Below, piece by piece: positions 14,134 through 53,267 of a stretch of 64,000 nucleotides of DNA. Every line of letters begins with the position of its first letter. The first letter of the stretch is position 1. This DNA comes from Acidimicrobiales bacterium (GTDB lineage: Bacteria > Actinomycetota > Acidimicrobiia > Acidimicrobiales > Aldehydirespiratoraceae): positions 3,250,134 through 3,314,133 of the forward strand of contig OZ220692.1 in NCBI GenBank assembly GCA_965116485.1, read 5' to 3'. Made by a program: the position numbers and the translations under genes. Below the pieces are notes generated by a model. It had not been told where the DNA came from, searched no databases, and saw only the letters and a list, made by a program, of their open reading frames with translations.

Positions 14134-14556
14134 TCAATCAGTGGCGAGTTCAAGCTTCTCAACCAAGTACTTTGCGTCATCGATAAAACCGTTGACAGTT
14201 GACGTTACGAAGTTCGCTATCGCTTCACTGTATTCATGTGTCGTCGAAATTCGTAGTTTGTGATGTTCCAGCCAATCCTCCGCGTCGGCAATAAGATGCT
14301 GCTCGGCAGCCAGGCGAAAAAGTGCCTTACGGGTGGTAGGGATCGGAAGAGGGACAAGTCCCGCCTCTTCAAGCCACCGTTTCATCAGTTTCCAAGACAA
14401 CTCGTATGTGATATCGAAGTTCTTGATGACACCCGCGCGCAGGCCATCCTTCTCGATGTCCGTGAATAGCGCCATCCGTATCTGGTCGGTCGTAACGGCC
14501 GCTAGGTTCGCGAGGTTTTCGACCGAACTGCGGAGCGAATCGACTTGGATGGTCAC
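14134..14556 (-). CDS. HEPN-domain protein (HI0074-family nucleotidyltransferase substrate-binding protein)
   Basis: 140 aa with GVIKNFDITYELSWKLMKRWLE and RKALFRLAAEQHLI, followed by the cognate MNT domain. Confidence 0.8.
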   Translation of the reverse strand: MTIQVDSLRSSVENLANLAAVTTDQIRMALFTDIEKDGLRAGVIKNFDITYELSWKLMKRWLEEAGLVPLPIPTTRKALFRLAAEQHLIADAEDWLEHHKLRISTTHEYSEAIANFVTSTVNGFIDDAKYLVEKLELATD

Positions 14557-14565
14557 GAGGCAACC

Positions 14566-16188
<1,623 letters not shown>

Positions 16189-37720: not shown

Positions 37721-37766
37721 GCCTCGCGTCATGAGCCTGGTTTCATGAGCCTGGTTTCATGAGCCT
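37715..37766 (+). repeat. 14-nt tandem repeat x4 (TCATGAGCCTnnnn) at the iolB/aldolase junction
   Basis: tcatgagcct occurs at 37715, 37729, 37743 and 37757. Each copy contains an overlapping ATG/TGA (ATGA). Confidence 0.9.
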
Positions 37767-38616
37767 CGAGGGCATTTCACACAACGGCCGCTTCTGCGTG
37801 CTCGCGATCGACCACCGTGATTCGTTGCTGAAGTTCCTGTCACCGGCTGATCTCGACGCGGTTTCGGCTGATCAGCTCACCACCCTGAAGACCGACATCG
37901 TGCGTGAACTGGCGCCGTTGGCCACCGGGGTGATGCTCGAACCCGAGTATTCGATCCCCCAGGTCGCTGACGCCGGAGCTCTGCCTGAAGGCATCGGTTT
38001 CGTGGCCGCTCTCGAGTCGCAGGGCTACCTCGGCGAGTTGGGTTCTGCGCCCACGACCGTTCTCGACGGCTGGTCTGTTGAGGCGGCCGCGGCCAGCGGC
38101 GCGGCTGCTGTGAAGCTGCTGCTGCCGTACCATCCCGACCGTGCTCTGGCCTCCGTGCAGCGGGCGGTTGCCGCAGAGGTGATCGCCGAGTGCCGCCGAG
38201 TCGGAATCCCGTTGGTCCTCGAACCGCTGTATTACGATCTCGACAGCCCGCACGACAGGCGCCGAGTCGTCATCGAAACCGCCCGAGCGTTCGCCGCGGC
38301 CGACCCTCATCTGCTGAAGCTGCCGTTCCCGGTCGATCCGACCCTTGAGCCTGACCGCAGCGTCTGGCTCGACGCCTGTGTGGAGATGAACGCGCTGATT
38401 CCGATGCCGTGGACGCTGCTGTCGGGCGGCGGCGACTTCGATTCGTTCTTCGCGCAGGTCGAGGTTGCGCTCGAGGCCGGTGCGGCGGGATGCATGGTCG
38501 GCCGTGCCCTCTGGGGCGAAGCAGCCCAAGCCCCCAACTCCGACCGCCTCACAGTCCTGAACACCCTGATCGCCCCCCGCCTGTCCCGCCTCCACTCCTT
38601 GATCTGCAACCCCTAG
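37759..38616 (+). CDS. Class I aldolase of the LacD/YihT family (probable 5-dehydro-2-deoxyphosphogluconate aldolase of the iol pathway)
   Basis: 285 aa. NGRFCVLAIDHRDSL, KLLLPYHPD and MPWTLLSGGGDFDSFFAQVEVALEAGAAGCMVGRALWGE resemble tagatose-bisphosphate/sulfofructosephosphate aldolases. Confidence 0.75.
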   Translation: MSLEGISHNGRFCVLAIDHRDSLLKFLSPADLDAVSADQLTTLKTDIVRELAPLATGVMLEPEYSIPQVADAGALPEGIGFVAALESQGYLGELGSAPTTVLDGWSVEAAAASGAAAVKLLLPYHPDRALASVQRAVAAEVIAECRRVGIPLVLEPLYYDLDSPHDRRRVVIETARAFAAADPHLLKLPFPVDPTLEPDRSVWLDACVEMNALIPMPWTLLSGGGDFDSFFAQVEVALEAGAAGCMVGRALWGEAAQAPNSDRLTVLNTLIAPRLSRLHSLICNP

Positions 38617-38732
38617 CGTCCACGATTCGGCGAGCCGACCGTAGGAAATTGATTAATTTTCAATATTTTCCAATATAGTTTGTTCAGCCGTATACAGTGA
38701 GATTTCAAGACCAAGCGTTAGCAGAGTACGCT
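38376..38732 (+). repeat. Direct repeat copy 1 (attL-like): last ~80 codons of the aldolase gene plus 116 bp downstream
   Basis: Aligns without indels to 50946-51302 (offset 12570). I count ~16 mismatches, and the final ~80 bp are identical. Confidence 0.95.
38668..38696 (+). promoter_or_regulatory. Candidate sigma70-type promoter TTCCAA-N17-TATACA inside the AT-rich part of the direct repeat (second copy at 51238-51266)
   Basis: AT-rich segment gaaattgattaattttcaatattttccaatatagtttgttcagccgtataca in otherwise GC-rich DNA. It lies directly upstream of the first ORF on each side. Confidence 0.35.
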
Positions 38733-38762
38733 AGAAACAACGTTGCGCTGAGAGGACAAGCG

Positions 38763-38966
38763 ATGGCCACCAAGCACTTGCAGCAAGGGCTCGCCTCAGT
38801 CAGCGACCAAGAAGAGGACGAACAAACTCTGACCATTGAGGATCTCAAGGCCAGCACCGGCAAAGGGCCGCGCCTGGATTCCGAGGACATCGCCAACACC
38901 TACTACAGCGACGAGGAATTTCTCGCCGCGCTCGAGGCTAGGCGCAACAAAAACTCAACCGCGTAA
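38763..38966 (+). CDS. Small acidic protein, putative antitoxin of the following RelE/ParE-like gene
   Basis: ATG at 38763 preceded by GAGAGGA; 67 aa, MATKHLQQGLASVSDQEEDEQTLTIEDLK.... The assignment rests on position upstream of the toxin-like gene. Confidence 0.45.
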   Translation: MATKHLQQGLASVSDQEEDEQTLTIEDLKASTGKGPRLDSEDIANTYYSDEEFLAALEARRNKNSTA

Positions 38967-38977
38967 GCGGCCGTCCA

Positions 38978-39280
38978 TTGCCCACTCACTTCGAGACGCA
39001 AGCGTTCTTGCGCGATCAACGCAGACTCACGCCCCAGCAAGCGGACCGCTTCCGAGTCCGCCTAGGGGATTTCATTGACGACCTGCGGGAGATGGAAGAA
39101 GGGCGACGACGCTGGTTCCGTTCGGGACTTCGCGTCAAGAAGCTGTCCGCTGCATCAGGAATGTACGAGATGTCGTGGGCTCCAGACGGCCGCGCGACTT
39201 TCGCAATCGGTGACCCCATCGTCAGTGGCAAATTGCACATTGTGTGGTTGCGGGTCGGCGGTCATGAAGTCCTTCCGTAA
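38978..39280 (+). CDS. RelE/ParE-superfamily toxin-like protein
   Basis: 100 aa. The pattern F..D...L......F...L......GLRVKKL....GMYEMSWAPDGRATF......HIVWLRVGGH is typical of RelE/ParE-fold toxins. Confidence 0.6.
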   Translation: MPTHFETQAFLRDQRRLTPQQADRFRVRLGDFIDDLREMEEGRRRWFRSGLRVKKLSAASGMYEMSWAPDGRATFAIGDPIVSGKLHIVWLRVGGHEVLP

Positions 39281-39368
39281 GCCCTCCAGTTGACCGACTT
39301 CCCAACAATCGACGGTCATCAGTGGGACGCCTTGAGAGTCAGCGGATCTGCCGGGTAGGGTTTCCGGC

Positions 39369-42300
39369 GTGAGCGAATCAGACGGTGGGGGCCTGTTCAT
39401 CGTCGACAACAGCGTCTCGGGCTGGACGGGGCTGGAGTATCTCCGCCAATGGAGCGACTTGGCCCGGTCGTTCGACATCGCGACGGGGTTCTTCGAAATT
39501 GGGGCTCTGCTTGCACTTGATGGCGACTGGCAGAAACTTGAGAAGATCCGCTTGCTGATGGGCGACGAGGTGTCGCTTCGCACCAAGGCGGTGTTCACGG
39601 AAGCGCTCCGGAAACGTGTAGGCCGGCTCAACGACAGTTTGGAGCGAGAAAAGGGGCCTAATCCGTTCCTTGAGGGTGTCGCGGCGGTGGTTGAGGCGAT
39701 TGCTGAAGGGCGGATCGAGTGCCGCGTGTACCGGCGCGACAAGTTCCACGCGAAGACCTACATCACCCACGCCAAGTTCGATGTCGTCGGTGCACAGGCC
39801 TTGGTCGGTTCCAGCAACTTCACCAACCCAGGGCTCACTCAGAACATTGAGTTGAACATTCAGGTCCAGAGTGGGCGCGAAGTGGCCCAGCTCCAAGATT
39901 GGTTCGACACGCACTGGGCCGATGGGGAGGACGTAACGGCCGATGTGTTACGCACAATTCAGCGACATACGGCTGAGTATTCGCCGTTTGACGTGTACGC
40001 CAAAGCACTGCACGAGTTCTTCCGCGGCCGTGAGTTGACGGCCGGTGAGTGGGACGAATCTCATTCAAAGATGTTCGGACATCTCGATCGCTACCAGCAC
40101 GAGGCTTACTGGTCGTTGATGAAAATTGCCCGTCGTTACGGCGGTGCTTTCTTATGCGACGGCGTGGGTCTCGGTAAGACCTTCGTAGGACTGATGCTGA
40201 TTGAACGGTTGGTGTTGCATGAGAACAAGAGGGTGGTGTTGTTCGCTCCGAAAGCAGCTCGTGAGGGGGTGTGGGAACCCCATCTGCAGCGTTGGCTTCC
40301 CCACATAGGCGGGGTCGGCGGTGGTGCCGACTTCTCTAGCCTGAGCGTGTTCAGCCATACCGACTTAGGGCGTGGCGGCGACTTTCCTATGAGGTTTGAG
40401 CGCATCACAGATCTCGCTGACGCGGTGATAGTCGATGAAGCCCACCATTTTCGCAATCGGGGAAGTCGCGGCAATCCCAGCAACGGCTCCGACATCGTGC
40501 AGGGCACCGATGATTCCCAAGACCGTCGTTCTCGTTACTACCGGCTCTACGACATGCTGGACAGCTCCCAGCGCTCAAAGATGCTGTTCTTGTTGACAGC
40601 CACACCGGTCAATAACCGGCTCGCTGATTTCCGCCACATGACCGAGTTGTTCACCCGCGGCGACGAAGCCTTCTTTTCTGACAGTCTTGGAGTAAACAAC
40701 CTTTCGGCACACTTCAACGTTAAGGAACGTGCCCTACAGAGTTCTCTCAGAAGCAGTGATCCGGACGAGAGTTCCGAGCGCGCCGGTTCGATTCTCTCCG
40801 AGGGGATGACTCCTGAGGCTCGTGATGCGCTAGCGGCAGATGAGGTGTTCAGCGCGCTGGTAGTGCAACGCAGCCGCTCCTACGCCAAAGCCAGTCAGAT
40901 TCAGGAGCGAGGCGAGTCGGCTGCGTTCCCCGAGCGCAAGTCTCCTCGGGTTGCGGATTATTCGATCAGATCTTCCTACGGACAGGTTCTCGAAATGTTC
41001 GAGACGGCATTCCAACGCCAGCAGCCGCTCTTCTCGCTGGCTATGTATTATCCGCTCGCCCACTACATCGGTCCTGATGACATCAACCCGCTTGAGGAAA
41101 ACCGCCAGCGCCAAGTGGTTGGGCTTATTCGCACAATGTTCTTGAAGCGGTTTGAGAGCTCGGTCTACGCGTTCGAGAAATCACTCGATCGACTGCTGCG
41201 CAAGTTGCTGGCTTTCGCGGTTGTCCATTGTGAGCCGGGAGCAGAACAGGATCGCCTCGACATCTGGAAGCGTCAGCACGCGGAAGTAATCGGTTATCGC
41301 CCCGAGGTCCAGTTGGAGCTCGACCTGACCGATGCGGAGACCGATGACGAAGATGCCGACGAGGATGTGGTGCCTCAGGAACTGTTGGAGGCGGTGACCG
41401 ATCTCGACCGCGCCGACTACGACGTAGCGGCGATCCTTGAGAAGACGTTTGAGGACCTTGACGAGATTGTCAGGTTCCAAGCTGCCATTAGTCAGATCAC
41501 GCCCGATCAAGACGACAAGGTGCGCAAACTCATCCGATTACTGAGCACGAAGGACCTAGCAAATCGCAAGGTGCTTGTGTTTACCGAGTTTGCGGACACA
41601 GCTCGTTATGTGGAGTCGCGGCTCGTTGCCGCTGGAGTGACTGGACTCGCCCGAATCGACGGTGGGTCAACGGCGGATCGCGCTGATGTAATCCGTCGGT
41701 TCTCGCCTTACTACAACGGCACCAACACGGAGGAATTGCGCAATCGAGGGCAGGACGAGATCCGGGTACTGATCTCTACAGATGTGCTCTCCGAAGGTCT
41801 CAATCTCCAGGACGCCACACGATTGGTCAACTACGACCTTCATTGGAATCCGGTCCGGTTGATGCAAAGAATCGGCCGTGTGGACCGTCGCATGAGCCCT
41901 GAGATTGAACGGTGTCTAACCGAGGACCACCCTGAGTCAGCCGCCGACCGGGGCACGGTACGGTACTGGAACTTCCTTCCGCCAGAAGACCTTGAACGAA
42001 TACTGAAGCTATACGAGCGGGTCACCGGCAAGACTCTGCTCATCTCAAGCACGCTGGGCATTGAGGGTCGCAAGCTGCTTCGCCCTGATGACGACTACGA
42101 CCCGTTACGAGAGTTCAACGCCAACTACGAGGGCACCCGGACGACCGTGGAGGAGATGCATCTGGAGTACCAAGCACTACTCCAGCGCAATCCCGATCTA
42201 CCCGAGCGTCTTGACGGATTGCCTGGTTCGGTCTTCTCCGGCCGCAAGCAGCTCGCAAAGGGTCTACGCGGCGTTTTCTTCTGCTATTCCCTCCCTGCTC

Positions 42301-42578
42301 TTGACTCTGACCGCGGCGCTTTCACGCTGGAGGCCGGCCCCACTCGTTGGTACCTGTACGACTTGGACGACGACACGATTATCGAATCTCCTAATGAGAT
42401 AGTCGCGAGCATTCGTTCCAAACCCAATACCCCTCGTCGCTGTTCTACCGCACGCGGGACCTTAACGGAGGTCCGCGATAAGGTCGCGCGCCATCTGCGT
42501 AACACCTACCTCAAACAGGTCAACGCCCCCATTGACGCCCCAGATCCCGCTTTGCGCTGCTGGATGGAACTGAACTGA
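39369..42578 (+). CDS. PLD-family (HKD) nuclease domain fused to an SNF2-family helicase
   Basis: 1069 aa. N-terminal FHAKTYITHA...LVGSSNFTNPGL. Helicase motifs LCDGVGLGKT, VIVDEAHHFRN, LLTATPVNN, then STDVLSEGLNLQD and LHWNPVRLMQRIGRVDR. Confidence 0.9.
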   Translation: MSESDGGGLFIVDNSVSGWTGLEYLRQWSDLARSFDIATGFFEIGALLALDGDWQKLEKIRLLMGDEVSLRTKAVFTEALRKRVGRLNDSLEREKGPNPFLEGVAAVVEAIAEGRIECRVYRRDKFHAKTYITHAKFDVVGAQALVGSSNFTNPGLTQNIELNIQVQSGREVAQLQDWFDTHWADGEDVTADVLRTIQRHTAEYSPFDVYAKALHEFFRGRELTAGEWDESHSKMFGHLDRYQHEAYWSLMKIARRYGGAFLCDGVGLGKTFVGLMLIERLVLHENKRVVLFAPKAAREGVWEPHLQRWLPHIGGVGGGADFSSLSVFSHTDLGRGGDFPMRFERITDLADAVIVDEAHHFRNRGSRGNPSNGSDIVQGTDDSQDRRSRYYRLYDMLDSSQRSKMLFLLTATPVNNRLADFRHMTELFTRGDEAFFSDSLGVNNLSAHFNVKERALQSSLRSSDPDESSERAGSILSEGMTPEARDALAADEVFSALVVQRSRSYAKASQIQERGESAAFPERKSPRVADYSIRSSYGQVLEMFETAFQRQQPLFSLAMYYPLAHYIGPDDINPLEENRQRQVVGLIRTMFLKRFESSVYAFEKSLDRLLRKLLAFAVVHCEPGAEQDRLDIWKRQHAEVIGYRPEVQLELDLTDAETDDEDADEDVVPQELLEAVTDLDRADYDVAAILEKTFEDLDEIVRFQAAISQITPDQDDKVRKLIRLLSTKDLANRKVLVFTEFADTARYVESRLVAAGVTGLARIDGGSTADRADVIRRFSPYYNGTNTEELRNRGQDEIRVLISTDVLSEGLNLQDATRLVNYDLHWNPVRLMQRIGRVDRRMSPEIERCLTEDHPESAADRGTVRYWNFLPPEDLERILKLYERVTGKTLLISSTLGIEGRKLLRPDDDYDPLREFNANYEGTRTTVEEMHLEYQALLQRNPDLPERLDGLPGSVFSGRKQLAKGLRGVFFCYSLPALDSDRGAFTLEAGPTRWYLYDLDDDTIIESPNEIVASIRSKPNTPRRCSTARGTLTEVRDKVARHLRNTYLKQVNAPIDAPDPALRCWMELN

Positions 42579-45500
42579 TGAAGGGCCCGATCCAGTCCAA
42601 CCACGACGAATTCTTGCGTAATATCCGCACGTTCTCAGATGTCTGCGAGTACTTCGTTGACGAACTCGGGTGGCCGCTTGACGCATCGGCTCTTGAGGAC
42701 GAGAGTCTGAGTGACATCACCTTCGATTGGCACCCCAGCGAATTGGGTATCCCAGAAGAGCGGCTCAAGGACCTTAACCGGTTCCAACAGATGCGACCAT
42801 TGGCCACAGGCCAGCCATGGGGTGTGTTCTTCCTGGAGTTCGTCGGGCCGAAGTTACCCAGGACGCAAATCCGTCGGTTGCTGCTCGCGCTTGTTCAACG
42901 AAAACGCCAAACTCCGAATCCGGCACTACCGACCTGGGGACTTGATGACCTGTTGTTTGTGGTGCTGACCGGGGATGGTGACTCCTTAGAGGTGCATCTG
43001 CTCGCTTTCCGCGGCAGAACCCCTGGGTCGGCGGATTTCTTTTCGCTGTCGTGGCGCCCGGCACAGTCGCCAAATGCTCATCTAGGCCGCCTCCGCAACG
43101 AATTGTTGCCCAATCTGGCGTGGCCTCAAGACGTTGACGCCGAATCGTGGAGGACAGCCTGGCGAGAGGCATTCAAGTTACCGGTCGGCCAAGTAATCAA
43201 GGACTCGGCGCGCCTTGCCGAAAGAATGGCCAAGACCGCCCGCGATTTGAGAGACCAGATTCTTGACGAGCTTGGCAGAGAGCGAGCTCGGGAAGGTCGT
43301 CGGCAAGGAGACAACAGCAACAACATCGACGCCGACCTCTTGAACGGCGGTCGAATCACCACGGCACCGTTCTCTGGGTTGATGGGAGACATCAAATCGC
43401 AGCTTGTCGGCGACATCACTCGTGAGAGCTTTGCCGACATGTGCGCTCAGACTCTCGTGTACGGAACCTTGAGCAGCAGGGTGTCCAACCCTGAAGACTT
43501 TGGGTCTTCGCCTGTCTTTTCGACGATTCCGCTCGGTAACCCGTTTCTTGAAGCCTTCTTTGAGCAGGTCCACGATCAAGCCGTGGAACTCGATCTACCC
43601 GGTAGTGACCTTCCTCAACTGGTCGCCGACTTGCGGGAGACCAACATCGAGCACATTCTCGACCAGATCGGTTCTACAGCCAAGGGCGGTGACCCGGTCA
43701 TTCACTTTTACGAGGACTTTCTTAAGCAGTACGACCGGGAGATGCGTGCCGACGCCGGTGCTTTCTACACACCGCAACCTGCAGTGGAGTTCATCGTCCG
43801 CATGGTTGACGAACTACTGCGATCCCGATTCGGCCTGCCGCTGGGGTTGGCCGACGACGCCACATGGCAGGAGGTGGCCCAACACAACGATTTCGAAGTG
43901 CCAGAAGGTGTCGATCCTGCCAAGCCCTTTGTGTCGATGATTGATCCGGCCACCGGGACCGGGACGTTCCTAGTGGAGTGGCTACGCCGAGCTCAGATCT
44001 CTTACGAGCGGGCACAGAGTTCCAACAATTGGCCGAAGCACCTGCGTGAGCAGGTCCTAGGGTCGATGCACGCGTTCGAACTGATGCTTGCGCCATACAC
44101 CATTGCCCACCTCAAAGTCGCGCTCGAGTTGCACCAAGCAGGCGTTACCGATGGTGACACCTGTATTCGGATACTGCTCACCGACACGCTGGAGCACGCT
44201 GCCCGTCAAGGGCAATTCGAAACGATGAGCGACCCCGTTGCGGAAGAAGGCGAACGGGCCGCCAACCTCAAGGACAGTGAACGATTTACCGTTGTCATCG
44301 GAAACCCACCATGGGACCGCGAGCAGCAATCGGCAGAGGACACGGGAAAACGCAAGGGAGGTGTCGTCCGTCATGGAACCGGCGGAGTCGACGCGCTCCT
44401 CAAAGCCATGACGGAGCCCATGAAGACCGCGGGTCTCGGCCAACACATCAAGAATCTCTACAACGATTACGTCTATTTTTGGCGTTGGGCCACATGGCAG
44501 GCCACCGAAATGCCACCGGGCCCAGGAATTGTCGCACTTATCACGGCTTCGTCCTTTTTGGACGGAATTTCCATGTCTGGAGTACGTCACCATCTGCGGA
44601 ACGCCTTCGATTGTCTGTGGATTGTCGACTTAGGCGGAGATGGACGCGGCGCGCTCGCGGAAGAGAACATCTTCGACATTCAGACCCCAGTGGCTATAGC
44701 CATTGGAGTGCGCACTGGATTGCAGAGCAGCAACGAATGCAGGGTCCGTTACCTTAGGGTCGCCGGTACCCGACCCGAGAAGCTCGACCGCTTACGCCAA
44801 ATCAGCCTTGATGACATAACGGACAAGATCTCCGGTGATGGTTTTGACGTATTAACGCCTCGCAGCGACAGCCAGTACTACGACTGGCCCGAAATCGCCG
44901 AGTTATTTCCCTGGAGTCACTCTGGATGCCAACTAAAGCGGACATGGCCCATTGCCGAGAACCGGAACATCTTGGAAAAGCGGTGGCGCAAGTTGCTTGG
45001 CACCGTCCCCCGGCAACGTAAACCGCTGCTCAAAGAGACGAGGGACCGAAAGATTGAAACCACCCCTTTACCACTGCTGCGCTCTGGACCTCGACTGCAA
45101 CCGCTTGATCGCCTTGATCGGGACGACCAACCTGAAGGCCTAGAGAGATACGGATACCGTAGCTTCGATCGACAGTGGATGATTGCCGACAATCGTCTAG
45201 CCGACTTTCCGAGGCCTAACCTTTGGCGGCACCGTGGCTCACACCAGGTGTTCTTGACAACCCTGACCTCAACCAAGTTGGGACACGGCCCAGTGCTCAC
45301 CGCCACGCCCTACGTGCCAGACCTCCACTACTTCCGCGGTTCTTTTGGTGCCAAGAACGTTATGCCGCTCTATCGCGACGCGGCCGCTAACGAACCCAAC
45401 GCCACTCAGGACCTTCTCGCCACACTGAGCACGAAACTAGGCACCGAGATCACCGCCCAAGAGTTGTTTGCTTACGTTTACGCCCTAGGTGCCACATCCG

Positions 45501-46069
45501 CTTTCAGCGAGCGATTCGACGATGTGCTCGCCGAGCAGGCCGGACCCATCCATGTTCCGATCACCGCAGAAACTATCCTCTTCGAGCAGGCGGTTACACT
45601 CGGACGCGATCTTCTCTGGTGGCATACCTGGGGTGAACGCTTTCGTCCCGCCCGCCAAGCCCGTCTCCCAGATGGCCAAGCGACTGAAATCGAAGCTGTA
45701 GACGGACTGCCGGAATCGTTCGGCTACGACTCTGGTGCCCACGAGCTCAAGGTGGGCACCGGTGTCTTCGGCCCTGTGAGCCAAGAGGCTTGGGATTTCG
45801 AAGTATCCGGCCTGAGGGTCCTGCACTCCTGGCTCAGCTACAGAAAGAAGACCCGCAAAGGTAGAAAGTCCAGCCCACTAGACGATATCCGACCCACCCG
45901 CTGGACTCAGACCAACGAACTGCTCCTACTCCTATCCATCATTGAGCACACAATCGAGGTCACCCCCAAAGCCGCCGAACTCCTCGCCGAGATCGTCTCA
46001 GGCCCCCTGATCCCCGCCTCCGAACTCCCCACCCCCACCCCCGCCAACCGCAAACCCCCAAGGCAGTGA
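42578..46069 (+). CDS. Large N6-adenine DNA methyltransferase with a Type ISP-like C-terminal (specificity) region
   Basis: 1163 aa with GAFYTPQPAVEFIV, DPATGTGTFL and VIGNPPWD (motif IV). The C-terminal WDFEVSGLRVLHSWLSYRKK resembles the Type ISP C-terminal domain. The start overlaps the helicase stop (TGATG). Confidence 0.88.
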   Translation: MKGPIQSNHDEFLRNIRTFSDVCEYFVDELGWPLDASALEDESLSDITFDWHPSELGIPEERLKDLNRFQQMRPLATGQPWGVFFLEFVGPKLPRTQIRRLLLALVQRKRQTPNPALPTWGLDDLLFVVLTGDGDSLEVHLLAFRGRTPGSADFFSLSWRPAQSPNAHLGRLRNELLPNLAWPQDVDAESWRTAWREAFKLPVGQVIKDSARLAERMAKTARDLRDQILDELGRERAREGRRQGDNSNNIDADLLNGGRITTAPFSGLMGDIKSQLVGDITRESFADMCAQTLVYGTLSSRVSNPEDFGSSPVFSTIPLGNPFLEAFFEQVHDQAVELDLPGSDLPQLVADLRETNIEHILDQIGSTAKGGDPVIHFYEDFLKQYDREMRADAGAFYTPQPAVEFIVRMVDELLRSRFGLPLGLADDATWQEVAQHNDFEVPEGVDPAKPFVSMIDPATGTGTFLVEWLRRAQISYERAQSSNNWPKHLREQVLGSMHAFELMLAPYTIAHLKVALELHQAGVTDGDTCIRILLTDTLEHAARQGQFETMSDPVAEEGERAANLKDSERFTVVIGNPPWDREQQSAEDTGKRKGGVVRHGTGGVDALLKAMTEPMKTAGLGQHIKNLYNDYVYFWRWATWQATEMPPGPGIVALITASSFLDGISMSGVRHHLRNAFDCLWIVDLGGDGRGALAEENIFDIQTPVAIAIGVRTGLQSSNECRVRYLRVAGTRPEKLDRLRQISLDDITDKISGDGFDVLTPRSDSQYYDWPEIAELFPWSHSGCQLKRTWPIAENRNILEKRWRKLLGTVPRQRKPLLKETRDRKIETTPLPLLRSGPRLQPLDRLDRDDQPEGLERYGYRSFDRQWMIADNRLADFPRPNLWRHRGSHQVFLTTLTSTKLGHGPVLTATPYVPDLHYFRGSFGAKNVMPLYRDAAANEPNATQDLLATLSTKLGTEITAQELFAYVYALGATSAFSERFDDVLAEQAGPIHVPITAETILFEQAVTLGRDLLWWHTWGERFRPARQARLPDGQATEIEAVDGLPESFGYDSGAHELKVGTGVFGPVSQEAWDFEVSGLRVLHSWLSYRKKTRKGRKSSPLDDIRPTRWTQTNELLLLLSIIEHTIEVTPKAAELLAEIVSGPLIPASELPTPTPANRKPPRQ

Positions 46070-46256
46070 TGAATCAAGGAGGATCTGCTCACACGCTGAG
46101 AACTGCATCACGAAACACCGGGACACACTTGAGTCGGTTCCAAAACATGTCCAAAAGGACATCCGAGTCTGGCTCCAGACATTCTGCGTTAGCCGCTACA
46201 CCGCGTCGAGCGCCGATCAAGATTGATTCTTGCTCTGGCGACTTGAACTTTGAGCC

Positions 46257-49049
46257 ATGCGCGTAAGTGAACAACAAAAGATTGGCAAAGACGGCGAGCA
46301 CGCGGTTATCGGCCATTTTCGAAAGATTGGCTGGGAGCCAAGCTACGACAAGTCTTACGATGTGGGCACCGATTTTTTTGTTCACGCGCTCGACCCTGAG
46401 CGATTCGATCTTGGCGTCCAGCTCGGCGTGCAGGTCAAAACCGGATCTAGCTACTTCAGGGACAAGGTTATCCAAGGCGATGAACTCATTGGTTGGTGGT
46501 ACTACGAATCCAACACTCGCCATTTCGACCATTGGTCACAGCACAGTGTTCCGCACCTGCTTGTTCTACACGACCTTAGTAGCGAGACCTCACACTGGGT
46601 TCACGTCACTGAGGAGGCGCTCGTCTCCACTGGAAAGGGATGCAAGATCCTCGTACCAGCGGGACAAACGATAGACGAAGCCCACCGTGACGATATCCTT
46701 GTTGTGGCTTACAAGCGACCGACCTACGAACTGGAGGGGTCGGCGCTCGCGGGTGAAGCCCGCGACATCCCGCAGGAACATCGACTTCGTCATGCACTAG
46801 TTGCGCCCAGATTAGTCGTGCCACACCGTAACTCAGGCTTCCGAGACGAGATTGATGCCGTCCAAGCAGTCGCTCTTTTGACACAAGGTAGATTCCGCGA
46901 TCTCAAGCAATTCGCCAAGCAGCATCAATCCGTTCCCGACCCAGAAAGTACCAACCCGGATCCAGATTGGACCTGGCGGTTCGTCGCGGCGATATGGGAT
47001 TGGGCGCAAAATGACTCCATTACCCAGCTGAAGGACGCATTCGAATCCGCGCTCGAAAATAGATCCACGGTGGCAAGTGGCATTTTTCTAGCCTGCGCCC
47101 TCCAGCGGATTGAGCAATACGACGAAGCACTCGAAGTACTCGACAAGTTGGTAGCGATCGAAGGTCTCGAATCCGCCGACTACGGATGGGCTCTCGTTCA
47201 GCGAGCACGAACGAGGACCGAGGTTGGCGATAGAGACGGATGCCGCACCGACGCAACCACCGCGAAGAACTGTCTTGAGGCCACCAAGAAAGACGTAACC
47301 GTGTCTGCGTTCGCCGCTGCCGCTTCATCGCAACTCTTTGCTTTCAAAGAGCCCCGAAGCCTAAACGAGAGCGACTTCCGGGGACTGCTGGCAGCCGCCG
47401 ACCACACCGTCTCATGGTGGCGATCTCTGACTATCTCGTGGGCGCTAAGTGACTCAGTCGATTCACAGTTCAAAGCTTGGACCGAAAACCGATCACACGT
47501 TTGGATTAGCGAGGACAGGGAGGCTCTCAACCTATTTTCCGCCGAGCTCATGGCAGATCTCGCGGGCGAACACACTACATGGCGAGCGACATCAGCACTT
47601 GGAGCACGACAAAAACTCATTCGCGCCGCGACCTCCGAAGACGAACAAGCACAGCTAACCGAAGGGCTTGACACTCTCCGCCGCAGCGGAGACAACCAGT
47701 CCCTCAGGGCGGCCATCACCCATCTCCATCGGGTTGGCCCAATCAAACCGGTAGCAACAGCCATAGAAAAAGTCCCGCTGAATGGATGGACTCACACGAC
47801 CGCGGCTGCGAATTTCGAGGCTCTAGCGCAGGCTGGCGACCTTCTGAATGAGCAAGTTGCTAGTGAATTTCTTATTTGGAGCGCACGGATCGCTGCTGGG
47901 GATTCTGCGGAGTTCATAATTCTCGTCCGACCGATGTTCGCTGTCGAACACTACGCACTCAAAGCAGTGGCGCGCCTTCTGCCAGCGGCCGGTCCACCCG
48001 CGCATCGCGAACTTGCCAGCATTCTTTCTGCCCTACCAACCCCAACTCCAGATTCCCTAGTTCAAGATCTCGCGGCCATTGTCGAAGACCTCGGATTCGA
48101 CCTCATCGCAGAATCCGAGCGTGAGGGACTCTGGGCACTATGCGAACGAGATCAAGGGCCGGTTGGGAATGCCACACTCGGCTGGTTCGCATCTAATGGC
48201 AACCTGCATGCCCGTACTCAATTGAAAGCGCGCTCCGTAGGCGGTGATCTCGACGCGTTATCAACCCTTGGCGACGTTACCGCACTGGACACCTCGGAGG
48301 CTGCAGTCCTTATCCCCCACGTTGAGAGAATGGTTGCCGCTGGGTTATCCGACGCTCGAAACCACAAATACTCTCTCGGCGGTTTCGACGTAACCGAGAT
48401 ACTGACTCTATTGAACTTGTGGTTCCCCGACCAAGCAAGTTGGGATACCGTACTTTCACTGCTTAGCGAGCCCCTCGTGTCCACACGTGGCAAGCGCCGA
48501 ACCTGTTATCTCATATCAAGACTATCCACACGGCTACCTGAAGACGTTCAATCACACCTCAGGTCGAACATTGAGGACATACAGTCCGCCACTCCATTTT
48601 TTGGAGGAGAACCAGGAATCGGTGGAACGGGCCTCATGCTCGCTATCGCTACAGGTGCAATCGGCGAAGAGGCCGCCACCGTCGAGGCCATGAAACTCGC
48701 ATCAGGGTCTCCCCGGGATCGCTGCGATCTCGCTCGATTGCTAGGACTGGGTCAATGTTCACAAATCCAATCCATCTTGGCAGCACTTGTGGGCGACGGC
48801 CACTTTGAGGTGCGGCGTGTCGCAACCACCGCTCTTGGACAAATCGTATGCAATGACTCGAACACGTCACTGCACGATCTTGTGTGGGACATTGCGAACA
48901 AAGACGGCACTGACCTGCCCGTCGCGCTCCTAGTCGGCTTGGCTCGGGGTGAGGCACCACTGCCCGAGATCGGTTCAGAGATAGTGCAACAGCTTAAGCA
49001 CCATCGATCAGCGCTGGTAAGAGGTTACGCTAATCGCCTCTTGCGTTAG
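46257..49049 (+). CDS. DUF4365-like PD-(D/E)xK nuclease domain fused to a ~750-aa helical-repeat (TPR/HEAT-like) region
   Basis: 930 aa. N-terminal IGKDGEHAVIGHFRKIGWE...YDVGTDFFVH...LGVQVKTGSSYF. C-terminal HEAT-like HFEVRRVATTALGQI and HHRSALVRGYANRLL. I saw no P-loop. Confidence 0.7.
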   Translation: MRVSEQQKIGKDGEHAVIGHFRKIGWEPSYDKSYDVGTDFFVHALDPERFDLGVQLGVQVKTGSSYFRDKVIQGDELIGWWYYESNTRHFDHWSQHSVPHLLVLHDLSSETSHWVHVTEEALVSTGKGCKILVPAGQTIDEAHRDDILVVAYKRPTYELEGSALAGEARDIPQEHRLRHALVAPRLVVPHRNSGFRDEIDAVQAVALLTQGRFRDLKQFAKQHQSVPDPESTNPDPDWTWRFVAAIWDWAQNDSITQLKDAFESALENRSTVASGIFLACALQRIEQYDEALEVLDKLVAIEGLESADYGWALVQRARTRTEVGDRDGCRTDATTAKNCLEATKKDVTVSAFAAAASSQLFAFKEPRSLNESDFRGLLAAADHTVSWWRSLTISWALSDSVDSQFKAWTENRSHVWISEDREALNLFSAELMADLAGEHTTWRATSALGARQKLIRAATSEDEQAQLTEGLDTLRRSGDNQSLRAAITHLHRVGPIKPVATAIEKVPLNGWTHTTAAANFEALAQAGDLLNEQVASEFLIWSARIAAGDSAEFIILVRPMFAVEHYALKAVARLLPAAGPPAHRELASILSALPTPTPDSLVQDLAAIVEDLGFDLIAESEREGLWALCERDQGPVGNATLGWFASNGNLHARTQLKARSVGGDLDALSTLGDVTALDTSEAAVLIPHVERMVAAGLSDARNHKYSLGGFDVTEILTLLNLWFPDQASWDTVLSLLSEPLVSTRGKRRTCYLISRLSTRLPEDVQSHLRSNIEDIQSATPFFGGEPGIGGTGLMLAIATGAIGEEAATVEAMKLASGSPRDRCDLARLLGLGQCSQIQSILAALVGDGHFEVRRVATTALGQIVCNDSNTSLHDLVWDIANKDGTDLPVALLVGLARGEAPLPEIGSEIVQQLKHHRSALVRGYANRLLR

Positions 49050-49124
49050 AATTCTCGCACTGCGACGACTCGGAACGAGCTGGGAAACTCATTCCTTCGC
49101 AACTTGGTGTCCATTCGTACCCAG

Positions 49125-50915
49125 CTACCACCAACGGCTTGATTTGAACGATTCCTCATAGGACACTCGGATCTCGTCCAAATGTTCAGTGCTCTCAAAA
49201 ACCCCAGCTGCAATCAATAGGTCTGCGTTGCGTTCAACCATTGCGCCGGGGCGTCGGCTCGTGCCCGACAACCGCCAAGCCGCTCTGCCCACCGGGCCGG
49301 TGTCCCAACCGGATCCGCTCACGAATGCGAGTCCGATTAGGAATTCAGTTTCGTCGAACAGGCCCTCAAACTGCTCATCCTCTCTAACGATCTCCAACAT
49401 CGCCGGGCGAAGCATCGCTAGGAGGTGATCCGAAACTGGTGTCTTGCGCCGCTCGAAACCATCGATCGATCGCTTTACCCAGTCAGGATCAAGCACATGC
49501 CACGACGCCGCTGCTACAGCCACAGGTTCAATTGAATTAAGTCCCTTCGCAGAAACTGTTCCTAGAACACGGGCGATCGAGTCCAGCCGGTTTGCTGCCG
49601 CAGCTCCCAAAGCAATGGCGTAGAGACAAAGTAGCGAAGGGTACTGCTGCATATAGAGCAGTACGGTCTTACCACTGCTTTCTGTTCTTCTGTTGGCGAG
49701 CCGGTCCACGGTTCTAGCCAAGAGCTGGTCGTGATCAGCACGATCCGAAAAGAAAGCTCCGGTGGCAAGGAGTTTAAGGAGGCCGGCAGTCGCTTCTTCA
49801 TATACCTGCATCTGTTCCCTGTACCGCTGCGGTCCGACCTGACCGTTCACCGATAACTCGTGCACGCGATCAATCACCTCATCAGTCGCACTCATCACGA
49901 GATCATGGAGCTTGATGCGATGGACAGGATCGGGGAGGTACTTCTTCAGTTGGGTCACCGCGATAGCCGTATCTATGGGACGCTGATCGATCGCCTCGCG
50001 AAGCGATTCGACCTTGTCCGCTAGTGACTCGAAGGCGTCGTCTGCGTCTTGAATCGAAAAATCGATTGCATCGCGGTGCGTCACGATCTCTTGTGCCTCT
50101 GGTTTCAGCCGTCCACGGTGGAGCCAATACGTGGCGAACCGACGACCGGGTGATCGAAGAATCGCGTCCCTGAGAGCTTTGTCCCACTCAGCCGACCACC
50201 CACAGACCACGAGTCCGTATTGGTCGAACACCTCGTCAAGCAGTGTGTCGATCTCCGCGTCGTAGCCCGCCAACTCGTCAACCGTGTTCTTAAGATCGGC
50301 TGACATGTAGTCGCCATGAACCTTGACAATTGTGCACCCACTATGGGTGATCGGCGTTGCACCAGCCGCGTGAACTGGGCTCGAAATCACAGTGGGCTGA
50401 ACTCCTGCATCCGTAAGCGCGAGTTCAAGCAACCGATCGAAGTTCGTAGTGACGATTACCTTGACAAAACCACCCGCAACCATTCGGGCGATCGCGTGAT
50501 GAGCCTTCGTCGGGAGTTTCAGACCTTGTTCCTTATCCTCCTCTGAGGGCTGAAAGTACTTTTCCAAGAGATTCCTTCGATCGCTTGGAGATGGAGCTAA
50601 CTCGCCTAGAAGAGCGGAGTAGTCAGGATCGCCCTCGGTTTGGCTTTGGTACCAGGACAACGGGTCATCTCCGGTATCTTCACCTCGCAACGTTGCGAGC
50701 CGCTTAGTGAGATCAAGCGTTACGTCCCAACCAGTCGGAACGCCCGAGTTGGCGCTAATGCCCGAACCGAGCAACAACGCGAATGTATTTGGGCCAGCAT
50801 GAATGCTGGACGCAAGCGAAACCATTGGGTCAGACGACACGGTGTCGAATCTACCGGACTCCTGTGACAACTCGGAGTCGCCCTTGCTTGGGGCGGCACG
50901 AACTTCGGGGTTCAT
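49125..50915 (-). CDS. SIR2-like (SIR2_2 type) NADase-family protein with a C-terminal helical domain of unknown function
   Basis: Start reassigned to ATG at 50915 (MNPEVRAAP...). FALLLGSGISANSGVPTGWD, VIVTTNFDRLLE and IVKVHGDY are the defence-type SIR2 motifs. The first 88 codons of the track ORF are antisense to the aldolase relic. Confidence 0.8.
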   Translation of the reverse strand: MNPEVRAAPSKGDSELSQESGRFDTVSSDPMVSLASSIHAGPNTFALLLGSGISANSGVPTGWDVTLDLTKRLATLRGEDTGDDPLSWYQSQTEGDPDYSALLGELAPSPSDRRNLLEKYFQPSEEDKEQGLKLPTKAHHAIARMVAGGFVKVIVTTNFDRLLELALTDAGVQPTVISSPVHAAGATPITHSGCTIVKVHGDYMSADLKNTVDELAGYDAEIDTLLDEVFDQYGLVVCGWSAEWDKALRDAILRSPGRRFATYWLHRGRLKPEAQEIVTHRDAIDFSIQDADDAFESLADKVESLREAIDQRPIDTAIAVTQLKKYLPDPVHRIKLHDLVMSATDEVIDRVHELSVNGQVGPQRYREQMQVYEEATAGLLKLLATGAFFSDRADHDQLLARTVDRLANRRTESSGKTVLLYMQQYPSLLCLYAIALGAAAANRLDSIARVLGTVSAKGLNSIEPVAVAAASWHVLDPDWVKRSIDGFERRKTPVSDHLLAMLRPAMLEIVREDEQFEGLFDETEFLIGLAFVSGSGWDTGPVGRAAWRLSGTSRRPGAMVERNADLLIAAGVFESTEHLDEIRVSYEESFKSSRWW

Positions 50916-50945
50916 CGAAGGCGCACGGTCCAGGACGCTTGATGG

Positions 50946-51186
50946 CTGTGAGGAGATGAACGCGCTGATTCCGATGCCGTGGACGCTGCTGTCGGGCGGC
51001 GGCGACTTCGAGTCGTTCTTCGCGCAGGTCGTGGTTGCGCTCGAAGCCGGTGCAGCGGGTTGCATGGTCGGCCGTGCCCTCTGGGGAGAGGCAGCCCAAG
51101 CCCCCAACTCCGACCGCCCCAGAGTCCTCAAAACCCTGATCGCCCCCCGCCTGTCCCGCCTCCACTCGTTGATCTGCAACCCCTAG
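50946..51186 (+). pseudogene. Orphan 3' fragment of the LacD/YihT-type aldolase gene
   Basis: Encodes ...EEMNALIPMPWTLLSGGGDFESFFAQVVVALEAGAAGCMVGRALWGEAAQAPNSDRPRVLKTLIAPRLSRLHSLICNP*, a paralogue of residues ~206-285 of the gene at 37759..38616. No upstream part is present. Confidence 0.9.
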
Positions 51187-51302
51187 CGTCCACGATTCGA
51201 CGATCCGACCGTAGGAAAATGATTAATTTTCAATATTTTCCAATATAGTTTGTTCAGCCGTATACAGTGAGATTTCAAGACCAAGCGTTAGCAGAGTACG
51301 CT
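50946..51302 (+). repeat. Direct repeat copy 2 (attR-like)
   Basis: See copy 1. It has the same length and ~95% identity by my count. Confidence 0.95.
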
Positions 51303-51316: not shown

Positions 51317-51466
51317 GTGGACGTTATTGTTCAGAATGTCGCCGTTAGCATCGTATGCGGCGGGGTCGGATTTCTGGTCGGAGGACCGATCGGTTCATTT
51401 GTCGGGAGTGCCGTTTGCAGTACAATTATGGCTGTCACTATCTATGTCTGGGGGCCGAGCCACTAA
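51317..51466 (+). CDS. Small glycine-zipper membrane peptide (~49 aa; below the ORF-track size cutoff)
   Basis: Hand translation from GTG 51317: VDVIVQNVAVSIVCGGVGFLVGGPIGSFVGSAVCSTIMAVTIYVWGPSH*. The stop overlaps the next ATG (TAATG at 51464-51468). The start codon is uncertain. Confidence 0.4.
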   Translation: MDVIVQNVAVSIVCGGVGFLVGGPIGSFVGSAVCSTIMAVTIYVWGPSH

Positions 51467-51765
51467 TGCGACGTCACAAGGGTTTCATCATCTCCGAGCA
51501 ACAGCCGGACGCCGCTTACAGGAGCGTCCGCGAAGCTGTCACCATCTGGGTCGCATTCTTCGTCGTTTCTTTGACATCCCGACTTTGGGCCGACTTCGGC
51601 AACTTCGAAGCATTTCCCGCGATCGCGTTGATCACCACTTCGGTGTCGGCATGGGCGCTATGCAGTTTTTTGTGGGTCCGCTTCGGGCGGCAGCGTTTCC
51701 CCCTCCCTGACAAAGCCCGTGGGGTTGGCCATGGGTCAATCTCGCCGGACACGGTGTCCGAGTGA
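51466..51765 (+). CDS. Small 2-TM membrane protein
   Basis: MRRHKGFIISEQQPDAAYRSVREAVTIWVAFFVVSLTSRLWADFGNFEAFPAIALITTSVSAWALCSFLWVRF..., in frame with track ORF 51355..51765. The stop overlaps the next GTG. Confidence 0.45.
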   Translation: MRRHKGFIISEQQPDAAYRSVREAVTIWVAFFVVSLTSRLWADFGNFEAFPAIALITTSVSAWALCSFLWVRFGRQRFPLPDKARGVGHGSISPDTVSE

Positions 51766-52046
51766 GACAGTTCTTCGCTGCAACATCTTTCGCGCGTGGT
51801 CTAGTGGTTTTGGCGGTGGCGCTCACGGCATGTGGTAATTCCGTGGACGCTGGCGAGTGCCACGACGCGGCGATCGCCCAAGCAGTGGCTGAGCAGGCTT
51901 GGGCTTCGGTTATCGAGACCCACAACGCCGCTCACATCGACTCGATGGACGAGCATCCCGAGTTGGAAGGGGCGTTGTTGTCGAGCCGTGTTGACGTAAT
52001 TCTCGCTACCGAAGCAACGCGGCGAGCCTGCGGATCGTCGGCTTAG
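51762..52046 (+). CDS. Small lipoprotein with a conserved Cys pair (paralogue of 63112..63393)
   Basis: Signal peptide plus lipobox LVVLAVALTAC. The core C.DAAIAQAVAEQAWASVIETHNAAH...RVDVILATEATRRACG aligns with the 63-kb paralogue. Confidence 0.6.
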   Translation: MRQFFAATSFARGLVVLAVALTACGNSVDAGECHDAAIAQAVAEQAWASVIETHNAAHIDSMDEHPELEGALLSSRVDVILATEATRRACGSSA

Positions 52047-52420: not shown

Positions 52421-53155
52421 GGCTCTTCGCGTTTGAGGTCGGAGTCGGGGTTGTGGGGTGTTAGCGGTTGGTTGGGCGGGATCCTCCAGAATCGGGGTCA
52501 TAAACCACACCTGAACCTGGAGGATCGGTGTGGTGTGTGACCCTATAGGCATGTGTGAGTTGTTGGTGGGCCTCGGCGATGTCGACGTGTTGGGCGTCGA
52601 CGACGACCGTGGCGGCGGGCCGTTGAGGTTGAGTGTGCGAAGCCGGACTGCGCGTCCGTCGTGTGCGGGTTGTGGCGGCAAGTTGTGGTCCAAAGGAGAC
52701 CGGGCGGTGGAGCTGGTGGATCTGCCGAGCTTCGGCCGCCCGGCGAGGTTGGTGTGGCACAAACACCGGTGGAGATGCCCGAGTGAGGATTGCGGCGCGG
52801 GTTCGGTGACTGAACACAACCCTCAGGTCGCGCCGCCGCGGGCGTTGTTGACGACACGAGCAGCGCGTTGGGCGACACGCCAAGTCGGCCGTGGCCGTCC
52901 GGTGAGCGACGTCGCTTCGGACCTGGCGTGTTGCTGGTCGGCGGTGAACGACACGGTGCTGTGCTGGGGTCAAACGCTGCTCGACGCTGACACTGACCGG
53001 ATCGGCGCAACGACCGCACAGGGTCTCGACGAAACCCTGTTCTGTCGTGAGGGCCGTTATAGACACAAGGCGTGGGCGACCAGCATCGTCGACGTCGCCG
53101 GCGGCAAACTGTTGGACATAGTGCCTCACAGAACAGCTGAACCAGGTGCTCTACT
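52421..53155 (+). mobile_element. Truncated ISL3-family IS: left IR plus the first ~209 codons of the transposase (52530..53159)
   Basis: IR GGCTCTTCGCGTTTGAGGTCGG at 52421. The transposase N-terminus has RPSCAGCGGKLWSKGD...HRWRCPSEDCG and ends at a repeat array. No right end was found. Confidence 0.8.
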
Positions 53156-53267
53156 GTGAACGGTAGCTTGATGTGGAACGGTAGCGTAGATGTGCAATGG
53201 TAGCGTAGATGTGGAACGGTAGCGTAGATGTGGAACGGTAGCGTAGACTAAGTCGGCACGGTAGACC
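53156..53267 (+). repeat. 19-bp tandem repeat (GTGGAACGGTAGCGTAGAT), ~5 copies plus a degenerate unit
   Basis: gtgaacggtagcttgat / gtggaacggtagcgtagat / gtgcaatggtagcgtagat / gtggaacggtagcgtagat / gtggaacggtagcgtagac / taagtcggcacggtagacc. Confidence 0.9.

Follow-up and report, generated by a model that had tools for sequence, protein, structure and literature searches.

A direct repeat at positions 38376-38732 and 50946-51302 of a 64,000-nucleotide stretch of contig OZ220692.1 from an Acidimicrobiales bacterium duplicates the 3′ end of an aldolase gene and encloses a block of defence-type genes (the island). The whole stretch that was analysed is referred to as the window. The repeat is probably the scar of one homologous and one illegitimate join, both made by the host's own recombination, between alternative haplotypes of the locus. 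An earlier account made from the letters of the sequence alone (the preliminary description) had regarded the repeat as the attL/attR (left and right attachment site) signature of an integrative element. This central reading did not hold: no recombinase and no shared core were found, the empty sites carried the allele of the first repeat copy, and the cargo was ancestral at the locus. Judged by the gene content of related genomes, the locus is best described as an integrase-free hypervariable defence hotspot. The process is a known one (ordinary host recombination), and the locus is a new and well-documented example of it.

The Direct Repeat and the Aldolase Gene

The features that carry the argument are given below with their coordinates in the window and their strand.

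37759-38616, plus strand: intact aldolase gene of the DeoC/LacD family, 285 aa (Pfam DeoC, 2.9e-19), the left core flank of the hotspot
38367-38732, plus strand: copy 1 of the direct repeat, with the same allele as all four empty-site contigs
50937-51302, plus strand: copy 2 of the direct repeat, an orphan aldolase fragment with its tail, the allele of another lineage
38650-38732 and 51220-51302, no strand: 83-bp stretch identical in the two copies (exact comparison)

The two copies were aligned by exact comparison at a constant offset of 12,570 bp with 0 indels. The alignment had 16 mismatches over 357 bp (95.5% identity), the rightmost of which was at 38649, and it confirmed the offset, the lack of indels, the mismatch count and the identical end of the preliminary description. 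The homology reached 9 bp farther to the left (38367/50937) with three additional mismatches, giving 366 bp and 19 mismatches. At this stop, 6 of the outermost 9 bp were matched. The left edge of copy 2 appeared to be a non-homologous junction with the SIR2 upstream region, at which position 50936 belonged to the latter and position 50937 to the orphan. Copy 1 consisted of the final 80 codons and the stop codon TAG (38614-38616) of the aldolase gene, followed by 116 bp of downstream sequence. As first described, copy 1 completed an intact gene, and copy 2 was an orphan 3′ piece.

The last 83 bp of the copies were fully identical, with a guanine-cytosine (GC) content of 35%, and formed the longest unbroken identity tract between them; other such tracts measured 60, 35 and 31 bp. 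A clean final stretch of this length had a P of about 0.013 if the 16 mismatches were evenly spread. The 83-bp tail showed no variation in the eight conspecific sequences examined (these include the third haplotype described below), and sister species differed from it at many positions. Its terminal 15 bp, TTAGCAGAGTACGCT, at the left junction were unchanged in sister species only 82-88% identical nearby, and this conservation carried on equally into the DNA upstream of the first small gene of the island. A consensus scan of the aldolase tail for promoters and terminators gave nothing notable. Separately, the tail of the related locus L005 had an insertion of 140-146 bp (about 10964-11105) with TTAG at both edges, which fell between the homologues of window positions 38717/38718, just ahead of TTAGCAGAGTACGCT.

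The aldolase matched the tagatose-bisphosphate aldolase subfamily of NCBIfam at 162 bits, which was under the cut-off. Its gene closes an iol-type sugar cluster, the upstream neighbours being KduI/IolB-like, GFO_IDH, TPP-enzyme and PfkB genes. The homologues of the aldolase placed the window in sponge-associated Acidimicrobiia; among relatives with a name, the best were metagenome-assembled genomes (MAGs) of the Acidimicrobiaceae / 'Ca. Aldehydirespiratoraceae'.

Strains Without the Island

The preliminary description had predicted that empty sites would exist, and four were found. The island was absent from four Logan metagenome assemblies of four runs (L001, L002, L008 and L009), which were 98.4-99.8% identical to the window. 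Their contigs ran from the aldolase to 38732, continued directly at 51303, and extended to 52070. Hence, the window and the empty-site strains differed by exactly one unit of 12,570 bp. The contigs had single nucleotide polymorphisms (SNPs) of their own (e.g., at 51422) and were unbroken across both repeat borders, indicating a real, distinct island-free strain rather than a mis-join. All four carried the copy-1 base at 16 of the 16 variable positions. Because each empty site consisted of copy 1 and the right flank, the crossover was located within 38650-38732. This position is inside the identity tract of the repeat, as expected of a deletion product.

A third haplotype was represented by L091 (JGI 3300003175) and L092. 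Its intact aldolase gene was followed by the tail and then by the toxin pair of the island, which was interrupted at 39074 by the end of an ISL3-family insertion sequence (IS). The window had 39 differences from the empty-site strains over 2,374 bp and 100 from the third haplotype over 2,716 bp, and was thus closer to the former.

Origin of the Second Copy

The third-haplotype aldolase gene carried the copy-2 bases at 7 of the 16 variable positions (38381, 38442, 38462, 38475, 38484, 38490 and 38520, shared by L091 and L092) and the copy-1 bases at the rest. The divergent patch of this haplotype spanned 38163-38520 and thus reached past the left edge of the orphan, which shows that this type of allele exists in full-length genes. 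When the 16 sites were polarised with 12 relatives, about five changes were derived in copy 1 and about seven in copy 2, and four sites were ambiguous. The derived changes of copy 1 included E to V, E to D and P to L replacements at otherwise conserved residues. Moreover, 9 of the 16 coding differences (extended repeat) were synonymous, compared with 26% expected for random changes (P about 0.01). The shared variants of L091 and L092, the even split of the changes and the synonymous excess identify copy 2 as a piece of a functional aldolase allele from another lineage of the same species complex. The orphan therefore behaved as an allele of the flanking gene, as expected of a recombination scar. 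The view of the preliminary description that copy 2 was imported and not copied locally is upheld by the seven variants found in the intact aldolase gene of another strain and by the synonymous excess.

As a separate observation on the protein, the window and the empty-site strains carried the derived residues V, D and L at aldolase codons 208, 228 and 264 (38381, 38442 and 38549), where all of the 11-12 relatives and also the orphan copy had E, E and P. Replacements clustered in this way in the C-terminal part of a working gene are unusual.

Gene Content of the Island

The DNA between the repeat copies was 12,213 bp long and consisted of six tightly packed genes. These genes and the first genes to the right of copy 2 were as follows.

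38760-38966, plus strand: small acidic protein of 68 aa, a putative antitoxin judged from its position alone (no family match)
38978-39280, plus strand: candidate toxin with a RelE/YafQ/ParE fold, 100 aa (AlphaFold and Foldseek)
39369-42578, plus strand: fusion of a PLD (HKD) nuclease and an SNF2 helicase, 1069 aa (Pfam PLDc_2, SNF2-rel_dom and Helicase_C)
42578-46069, plus strand: N6-adenine methyltransferase with a Type ISP C-terminal specificity domain, 1163 aa (Pfam Type_ISP_C 7e-70, N6_Mtase and Eco57I)
46257-49049, plus strand: protein with an N-terminal DUF4365 (restriction-endonuclease-like) domain and a helical/HEAT-like region, 930 aa (Pfam DUF4365 5e-17, weak HEAT_2)
49125-50915, minus strand: SIR2_2-domain protein, start codon GTG at 50840 or ATG at 50915 (Pfam SIR2_2; PADLOC candidate PDC-S65, 1.5e-190)
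51466-52046, plus strand: small membrane protein (99 aa) and lipoprotein-like protein (94 aa) (no family match)

The gaps between the island genes were 30-187 bp, which left no space for a recombinase gene. The membrane and lipoprotein-like genes formed the sequence directly after the aldolase tail in the empty-site strains.

The preliminary description had assigned the island a toxin-antitoxin (TA) pair and defence-type proteins, and this assignment was supported, the second small protein having a modelled RelE/YafQ fold. The candidate toxin had no sequence match in Pfam, NCBIfam or the PDB. Its AlphaFold model had a confidence (predicted local distance difference test, pLDDT) of 92.5, and the Foldseek search against the PDB gave YafQ, RelE and YoeB with a probability of 1.0 and template modelling (TM) scores of 0.58-0.65. 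Furthermore, some of its homologues were named YafQ by JGI. The small acidic gene was kept upstream of the toxin-fold gene in L003-L006, L010, L011, L014, L015 and L094. The modelled fold supports a putative type II TA pair of the RelE/ParE superfamily.

The fusion protein was matched by the PADLOC model HKD+Snf2 (1.8e-50) and was also DrmD-like. The methyltransferase was matched by the PADLOC model REase_MTase_IIG (2e-223), and its sequence matches in the PDB were LlaBIII and LlaGI. The start of its gene overlapped the stop of the fusion gene by one base (TGATG). To judge by their domains, the PLD-SNF2 protein (the motor and nuclease half) and the methyltransferase resemble a Type ISP-like restriction-modification (RM) system that is split in two.

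The DUF4365-HEAT-like gene and the SIR2_2 (PDC-S65) gene formed a convergent pair that was kept in three genomes at about 70-75% identity (window 46257-50915; L010 10001-14618; L094 10001-14796). A 930-aa orthologue of the DUF4365 protein adjoined SIR2 in L010 and L094. The RM neighbour of the pair varied, being the split ISP-like system in the window and L010 and an MmeI-type system in L094. The two genes may constitute one two-gene defence system rather than two independent genes.

Persistence of the Cargo in Sister Species

A recent arrival of the island was not supported. The same toxin pair, PLD-SNF2 gene and methyltransferase gene followed the aldolase in sister species that had no repeat. 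In L003-L006 and L011 (aldolase 89-91% identical), the left junction was the same, TTAGCAGAGTACGCT being followed immediately by AGAAAC, and it was succeeded by the toxin pair, PLD-SNF2 and the methyltransferase. Loci L018, L020 and L010 had PLD-SNF2 and the methyltransferase straight after the aldolase, with neither the tail nor the toxin pair. No second aldolase fragment was found within 10 kb at the sister-species loci with the same cargo.

The nucleotide identities of PLD-SNF2 to four sister species were 88, 87, 81 and 81%, and those of the flanks were 87-90, 87-90, 82-84 and 82-84%, respectively. Across this range of 81-88% nucleotide identity, the protein was 89-93% identical between species. 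By this comparison, the RM genes are long residents of the locus that diverged in step with its flanks. The methyltransferase was more diverged than PLD-SNF2 (71-80% nucleotide identity), as would be expected for a specificity subunit, and its divergence is consistent with specificity switching.

The GC content of the island was 57.1%, compared with 63.8% in the left flank and about 61.5% in the right flank. The dip in the preliminary description was therefore real, although its value of 50-55% was too low. The same offset was found in sister species, and thus the lower GC content is no sign of recent arrival.

Variability of the Locus and Recurrence of Orphan Fragments

The interval between the aldolase gene and the major facilitator superfamily (MFS)/amidohydrolase genes ranged from 0.4 kb to >10 kb across 11 related species with conserved flanks, and it was shortest (0.4 kb) in L012, L013, L017 and L021. 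The cargo of the hotspot included DUF6791-ThiF, nSTAND and AAA_14-DUF4143 proteins, MmeI-like and other Type IIG methyltransferases, PIN toxin modules, a reverse transcriptase, and IS4 and ISL3 transposases. Defence functions were enriched in it: three kinds of RM system were present together with SIR2, DUF4365, STAND NTPases, TA modules, the reverse transcriptase and DUF6791-ThiF.

A second orphan aldolase fragment was found in L094. The order of this locus was the 3′ 379 bp of the aldolase gene, an MmeI-type RM system, DUF4365, SIR2 (70% identical), the reverse transcriptase and the second aldolase 3′ fragment, beyond which came the toxin pair, a PIN module and the MFS gene (window orientation). 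The fragment was about 96 bp long, was 90.6% identical to the first and was located 10,348 bp downstream. It started and ended elsewhere than the fragment of the window, with its end at the stop codon and no tail; hence, it represents an independent event of the same kind.

A self-similarity screen was carried out on 80 aldolase loci, each covered up to 10 kb downstream. Seven extra copies were detected, six of which were paralogous coding sequences or a hairpin repeat, and only L016 had a comparable direct repeat. This repeat was about 730 bp long (90-98% identical, at 10910-11636 and 14741-15498), started 58 bp past the aldolase stop codon, contained 33-bp tandem repeats and bracketed an IS4-family transposase and an nSTAND NTPase. 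No distal repeat of the aldolase or its tail was seen within 10 kb at the 80 loci. The conserved att site that the preliminary description implied was not recovered, as neither an att-like repeat nor an integrase occurred at this site in the 80 related loci.

Search for Mobility Genes and Target Features

No integrase, recombinase or transposase domain was detected in the six island genes with Pfam, PADLOC and NCBIfam. These profile searches and the gene-tight layout agree with the original statement that such genes are lacking inside the island. The same searches gave no recombinase among the other large open reading frames (ORFs) of the window. The hotspot cargo of the related loci examined had no integrase and only IS transposases. 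Rfam and tRNA scans detected no tRNA or Rfam RNA in the window, indicating that the site is not an RNA-gene target. A degenerate 34-bp pattern of the tail had no match in JGI metagenome or viral contigs; this negative is weak, since the search missed the JGI-derived L091. One relative of PLD-SNF2 was found in viral contigs (49% identical), which was uninformative.

An ISL3-family IS remnant, which the preliminary description had missed, was located just outside the repeat-bounded block.

52421-53159, plus strand: ISL3-family remnant made up of an inverted-repeat end (GGCTCTTCGCG) and 209 N-terminal aa of the transposase (Pfam Zn_ribbon_ISL3 and HTH_Tnp_ISL3)

Its truncated transposase ORF spanned 52530-53159. 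The ISL3 terminal inverted repeat (GGCTCTTCGCGTTTGAGG) occurred twice in the window as remnants (12112-12187 and 52421-52497). The same end was present in L091 (11317-11385) and L092 (2717-2746), where it breaks the toxin-like gene at position 39074 of the window. In L020, the methyltransferase gene was followed by an intact ISL3 transposase gene.

Proposed Recombination Mechanism

On the scar model, the host's own recombination would have joined two alternative versions of the locus, and the orphan copy would mark the joining place. The homologous join would lie in the aldolase 3′ end and/or the shared flank, whereas the illegitimate join would lie between 50936 and 50937. Two routes fit the data equally well. 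In route (a), a segment of an island-bearing strain (the aldolase 3′ piece, the tail, the toxin pair and onward to SIR2) would be circularised and would enter an island-free chromosome by a single crossover in the tail, and the empty-site strains would represent the unoccupied state. In route (b), a linear piece of an island-free strain (the aldolase 3′ piece, the tail, the membrane and lipoprotein-like genes and beyond) would be attached on the right side of a resident island through homology-facilitated illegitimate recombination. The homologous join would then be in the right flank and the illegitimate join beside SIR2, and the empty-site strains would be later deletions between the repeats.

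A RecA-type exchange inside the 83-bp stretch would delete exactly 12,570 bp and would leave an intact aldolase gene. Conversely, a circle with the block and one repeat copy could re-enter any chromosome that has this aldolase end. Exchange of this type is most likely in the 83-bp identity and would need no special enzyme, because this stretch was invariant in the eight conspecifics and was the longest identity tract. We infer both the route of recombination and its direction (insertion in the window strain vs deletion in the sister strains). The SNP mosaics were compatible with insertion as well as deletion. Parsimony slightly favours an ancestral island with later deletion over insertion, because the tail is followed by the toxin pair in the third haplotype as well as in the sister species, and the window is nearer to the empty-site strains; re-insertion into an island-free sister fits equally well.

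One further scheme was rejected. The preliminary description had proposed that an incoming island brings a new 3′ end of the gene and displaces the resident one, and this was ruled out by the copy-1 allele of the sister empty-site lineage, which was present at 16 of 16 positions in the nearest strains. Of the three options that it had offered, insertion by homologous recombination fits best, and the attL/attR element was not retained.

Several points weigh against a scar of host recombination. The right junction (the SIR2 upstream region joined to the orphan) was seen in this assembly alone, and a 40-bp pattern across it was unmatched in JGI metagenome contigs. Exact-protein look-ups of the aldolase, the toxin-like protein, SIR2, the junction ORF (50803-51186) and the membrane protein returned nothing, the source genome seemingly not being indexed. 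Neither proposed parent was seen in full; for route (a) it would be an island-bearing strain that has the copy-2 allele in complete form, and for route (b) a strain that has the copy-2 allele and lacks the island. No circle or hybrid allele (copy 1 on the left and copy 2 on the right) was found among the assembled sequences examined. A perfect 83 bp beside 5.8% divergence would also suit a recombination core. Homology-facilitated illegitimate recombination was rare where it was measured (PMC5361080 and references therein). Moreover, the scar model assumes competence or transfer routes in an uncultured host.

Competing Explanations

A site-specific integrative element whose integrase was lost or acts in trans, with the core in the 83-bp tail, would account for direct repeats that bracket foreign-looking cargo at a gene 3′ end, for the perfect distal 83 bp and for the precise empty site. 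The 15 bp TTAGCAGAGTACGCT unchanged among diverged sister species and the second orphan fragment in L094 could be read in the same way. However, an integrase was lacking in the island, the window and the related-locus cargo examined, and the homology extended over 357-366 bp of allelic gene sequence, in which the differences were scattered and for the most part synonymous, unlike a short core between unrelated arms. Sister species had the same cargo and the same junction with no distal repeat within 10 kb, and the L094 repeat, which ends at the stop codon, shares no core with that of the window. The conserved 15 bp continued into equally conserved sequence before the first small gene, and the unmatched tail pattern in viral or JGI contigs was a weak negative in addition. 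Furthermore, the empty sites carried the proximal copy-1 allele and not the displaced one, from which such an element escapes only if these sites are secondary deletions. An attL/attR origin is thus regarded as unlikely. A variant of it, in which an unrecognised recombinase with its gene elsewhere in the genome docks at the AT-rich tail ending in TTAGCAGAGTACGCT, is regarded as highly improbable. If this variant were true, a recombinase acting in trans would shuttle integrase-less defence cassettes in and out of the site in sponge symbionts and would leave the orphan gene fragments behind as by-products.

A local segmental duplication of the aldolase 3′ end, with later decay of the orphan as a pseudogene, would explain the missing 5′ part of copy 2 and its inability to encode an aldolase. 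Copy 2 also had changes of its own (38462, 38552, 38598, 38630 and 38649), and no donor with the complete copy-2 allele was found. On the other hand, the changes were split about evenly between the copies, and the derived state at 38381, 38442, 38549 and 38559 belonged to copy 1, copy 2 agreeing there with 11-12 relatives. The synonymous share (9 of 16), the seven copy-2 variants in the intact gene of another strain and the identity of the non-coding last 83 bp, which would be expected to decay fastest, all speak for a different history, and a local duplication has only a slender chance of being correct. Concatenation of an island-bearing and an island-free haplotype into one metagenome-assembled chromosome was also considered, because the window comes from a metagenome-assembled contig of 3.5 Mb, at least three haplotypes of the locus co-exist in public data and the right junction has no independent support. 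Nevertheless, apparently unrelated sequences are joined between 50936 and 50937 with no repeat there to mislead an assembler, accurate long reads could tell the copies apart by the 16-19 positions at which they differ, and an analogous orphan fragment occurred in the independent assembly L094. An assembly artefact is accordingly given scarcely any credence, and a scar of host recombination is the explanation that we prefer.

Other Features of the Window

The remaining observations concern the surroundings of the island. Three of the four empty-site contigs (L002, L008 and L009) ended at window position 52070, 24 bp past the lipoprotein-like gene, which suggests another strain-variable boundary there. 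The region at 51.5-53 kb had an unusually strong positive GC skew of up to 0.27. Four tandem copies of a 19-bp unit (GATGTGGAACGGTAGCGTA) were located at 53170-53245, immediately upstream of an AAA_14-DUF4143 ATPase gene (53291-54589), and this array could be an operator or iteron-like. Another tandem array, with a 54-bp period and about six units (inner units 91-98% identical), was present at 4475-4798 in or beside a TetR-like ORF region. A second defence-type cluster was found at 8746-16188, about 22 kb upstream of the island. It encoded a HipA kinase toxin, an IrrE-like M78 peptidase protein, a nucleotidyltransferase-HsdS fusion and HsdM, and contained one ISL3 end remnant.

Significance and Comparison With Known Systems

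The locus provides a nucleotide-level example of defence genes that are gained, stacked and lost with no dedicated mobility gene. Its states can be seen side by side: the occupied site, four empty sites, a third haplotype with the "foreign" allele, and sister species that keep the cargo. A duplicated gene end and a low GC content were insufficient to call an integrative element. A direct-repeat scar can make a resident defence block a removable, and possibly re-insertable, cassette. Because the orphan aldolase fragment recurs in a second genome (L094), haplotype stacking of the kind attributed to the toxin loci of type VI secretion systems (T6SS) and Rhs may, by analogy, operate in defence hotspots as well.

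Integrative islands with an integrase are inserted at the 3′ ends of tRNA and protein-coding genes, and they have integrase-less derivatives such as the cis-mobilisable elements (CIMEs) related to the integrative and conjugative elements (ICEs) of Streptococcus. The locus resembles them in the repeats at both ends, the intact target gene, the displaced 3′ fragment and the precise empty site. It differs in that no recombinase was found here or in relatives, the repeat is long and allelic and not a short core, the intact gene has the empty-site allele at its 3′ end, and the cargo is ancestral at the locus.

With Campbell-type integration by a single crossover, the locus shares cargo between direct repeats, copies that differ by the donor-recipient divergence, and reversibility. 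It is unlike that process in that no circle, replicon or transfer function was identified, and the formation of a circle would itself need an illegitimate join.

Defence hotspots flanked by core genes have been described as the core defence hotspots of Pseudomonas aeruginosa (PMC10250203) and as chromosomal hotspots of horizontal gene transfer (PMC5635113), and their turnover was attributed to homologous recombination in the flanks (PMC10250203, PMC5635113). The present locus is like them in the core genes on both sides, the defence-rich content that varies between strains or species, and the usual lack of an integrase. However, the 3′ end of the flanking gene is duplicated here beyond the cargo, which plain replacement by a double crossover does not yield, and the host is an uncultured sponge symbiont.

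A parallel for the orphan fragment is found in the orphan arrays of T6SS effector-immunity, Rhs and contact-dependent inhibition (CDI) loci, in which displacement was attributed to homology-facilitated illegitimate recombination (PMC5361080 and the studies of Rhs "C-terminal displacement" that it cites). As presented there, the incoming module is anchored by a conserved upstream segment while its other end joins illegitimately, and the older module stays downstream together with a piece of that segment, so that modules stack rather than replace one another. The repeated segments later recombine and delete the intervening module (Koskiniemi 2014, as cited in PMC5361080). The island would differ in that its anchor is a metabolic gene that has no part in the function of the cargo, its cargo is anti-phage defence rather than toxin and immunity, and there is one orphan and no array.

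The cargo was likewise compared with the Type ISP enzymes LlaGI and LlaBIII. A Type ISP enzyme, as defined, is a single polypeptide with an Mrr nuclease, a superfamily 2 (SF2) motor, a methyltransferase and a specificity domain. The methyltransferase and C-terminal specificity domain of the island match these enzymes and are coupled to an SF2 ATPase and a nuclease. In contrast, the island encodes two translationally coupled proteins, with a PLD/HKD nuclease that is not Mrr-like and an SNF2/DrmD-like motor. The predicted split RM system would therefore work like a Type ISP system and is not a member as defined, since only the methyltransferase-specificity half matches.

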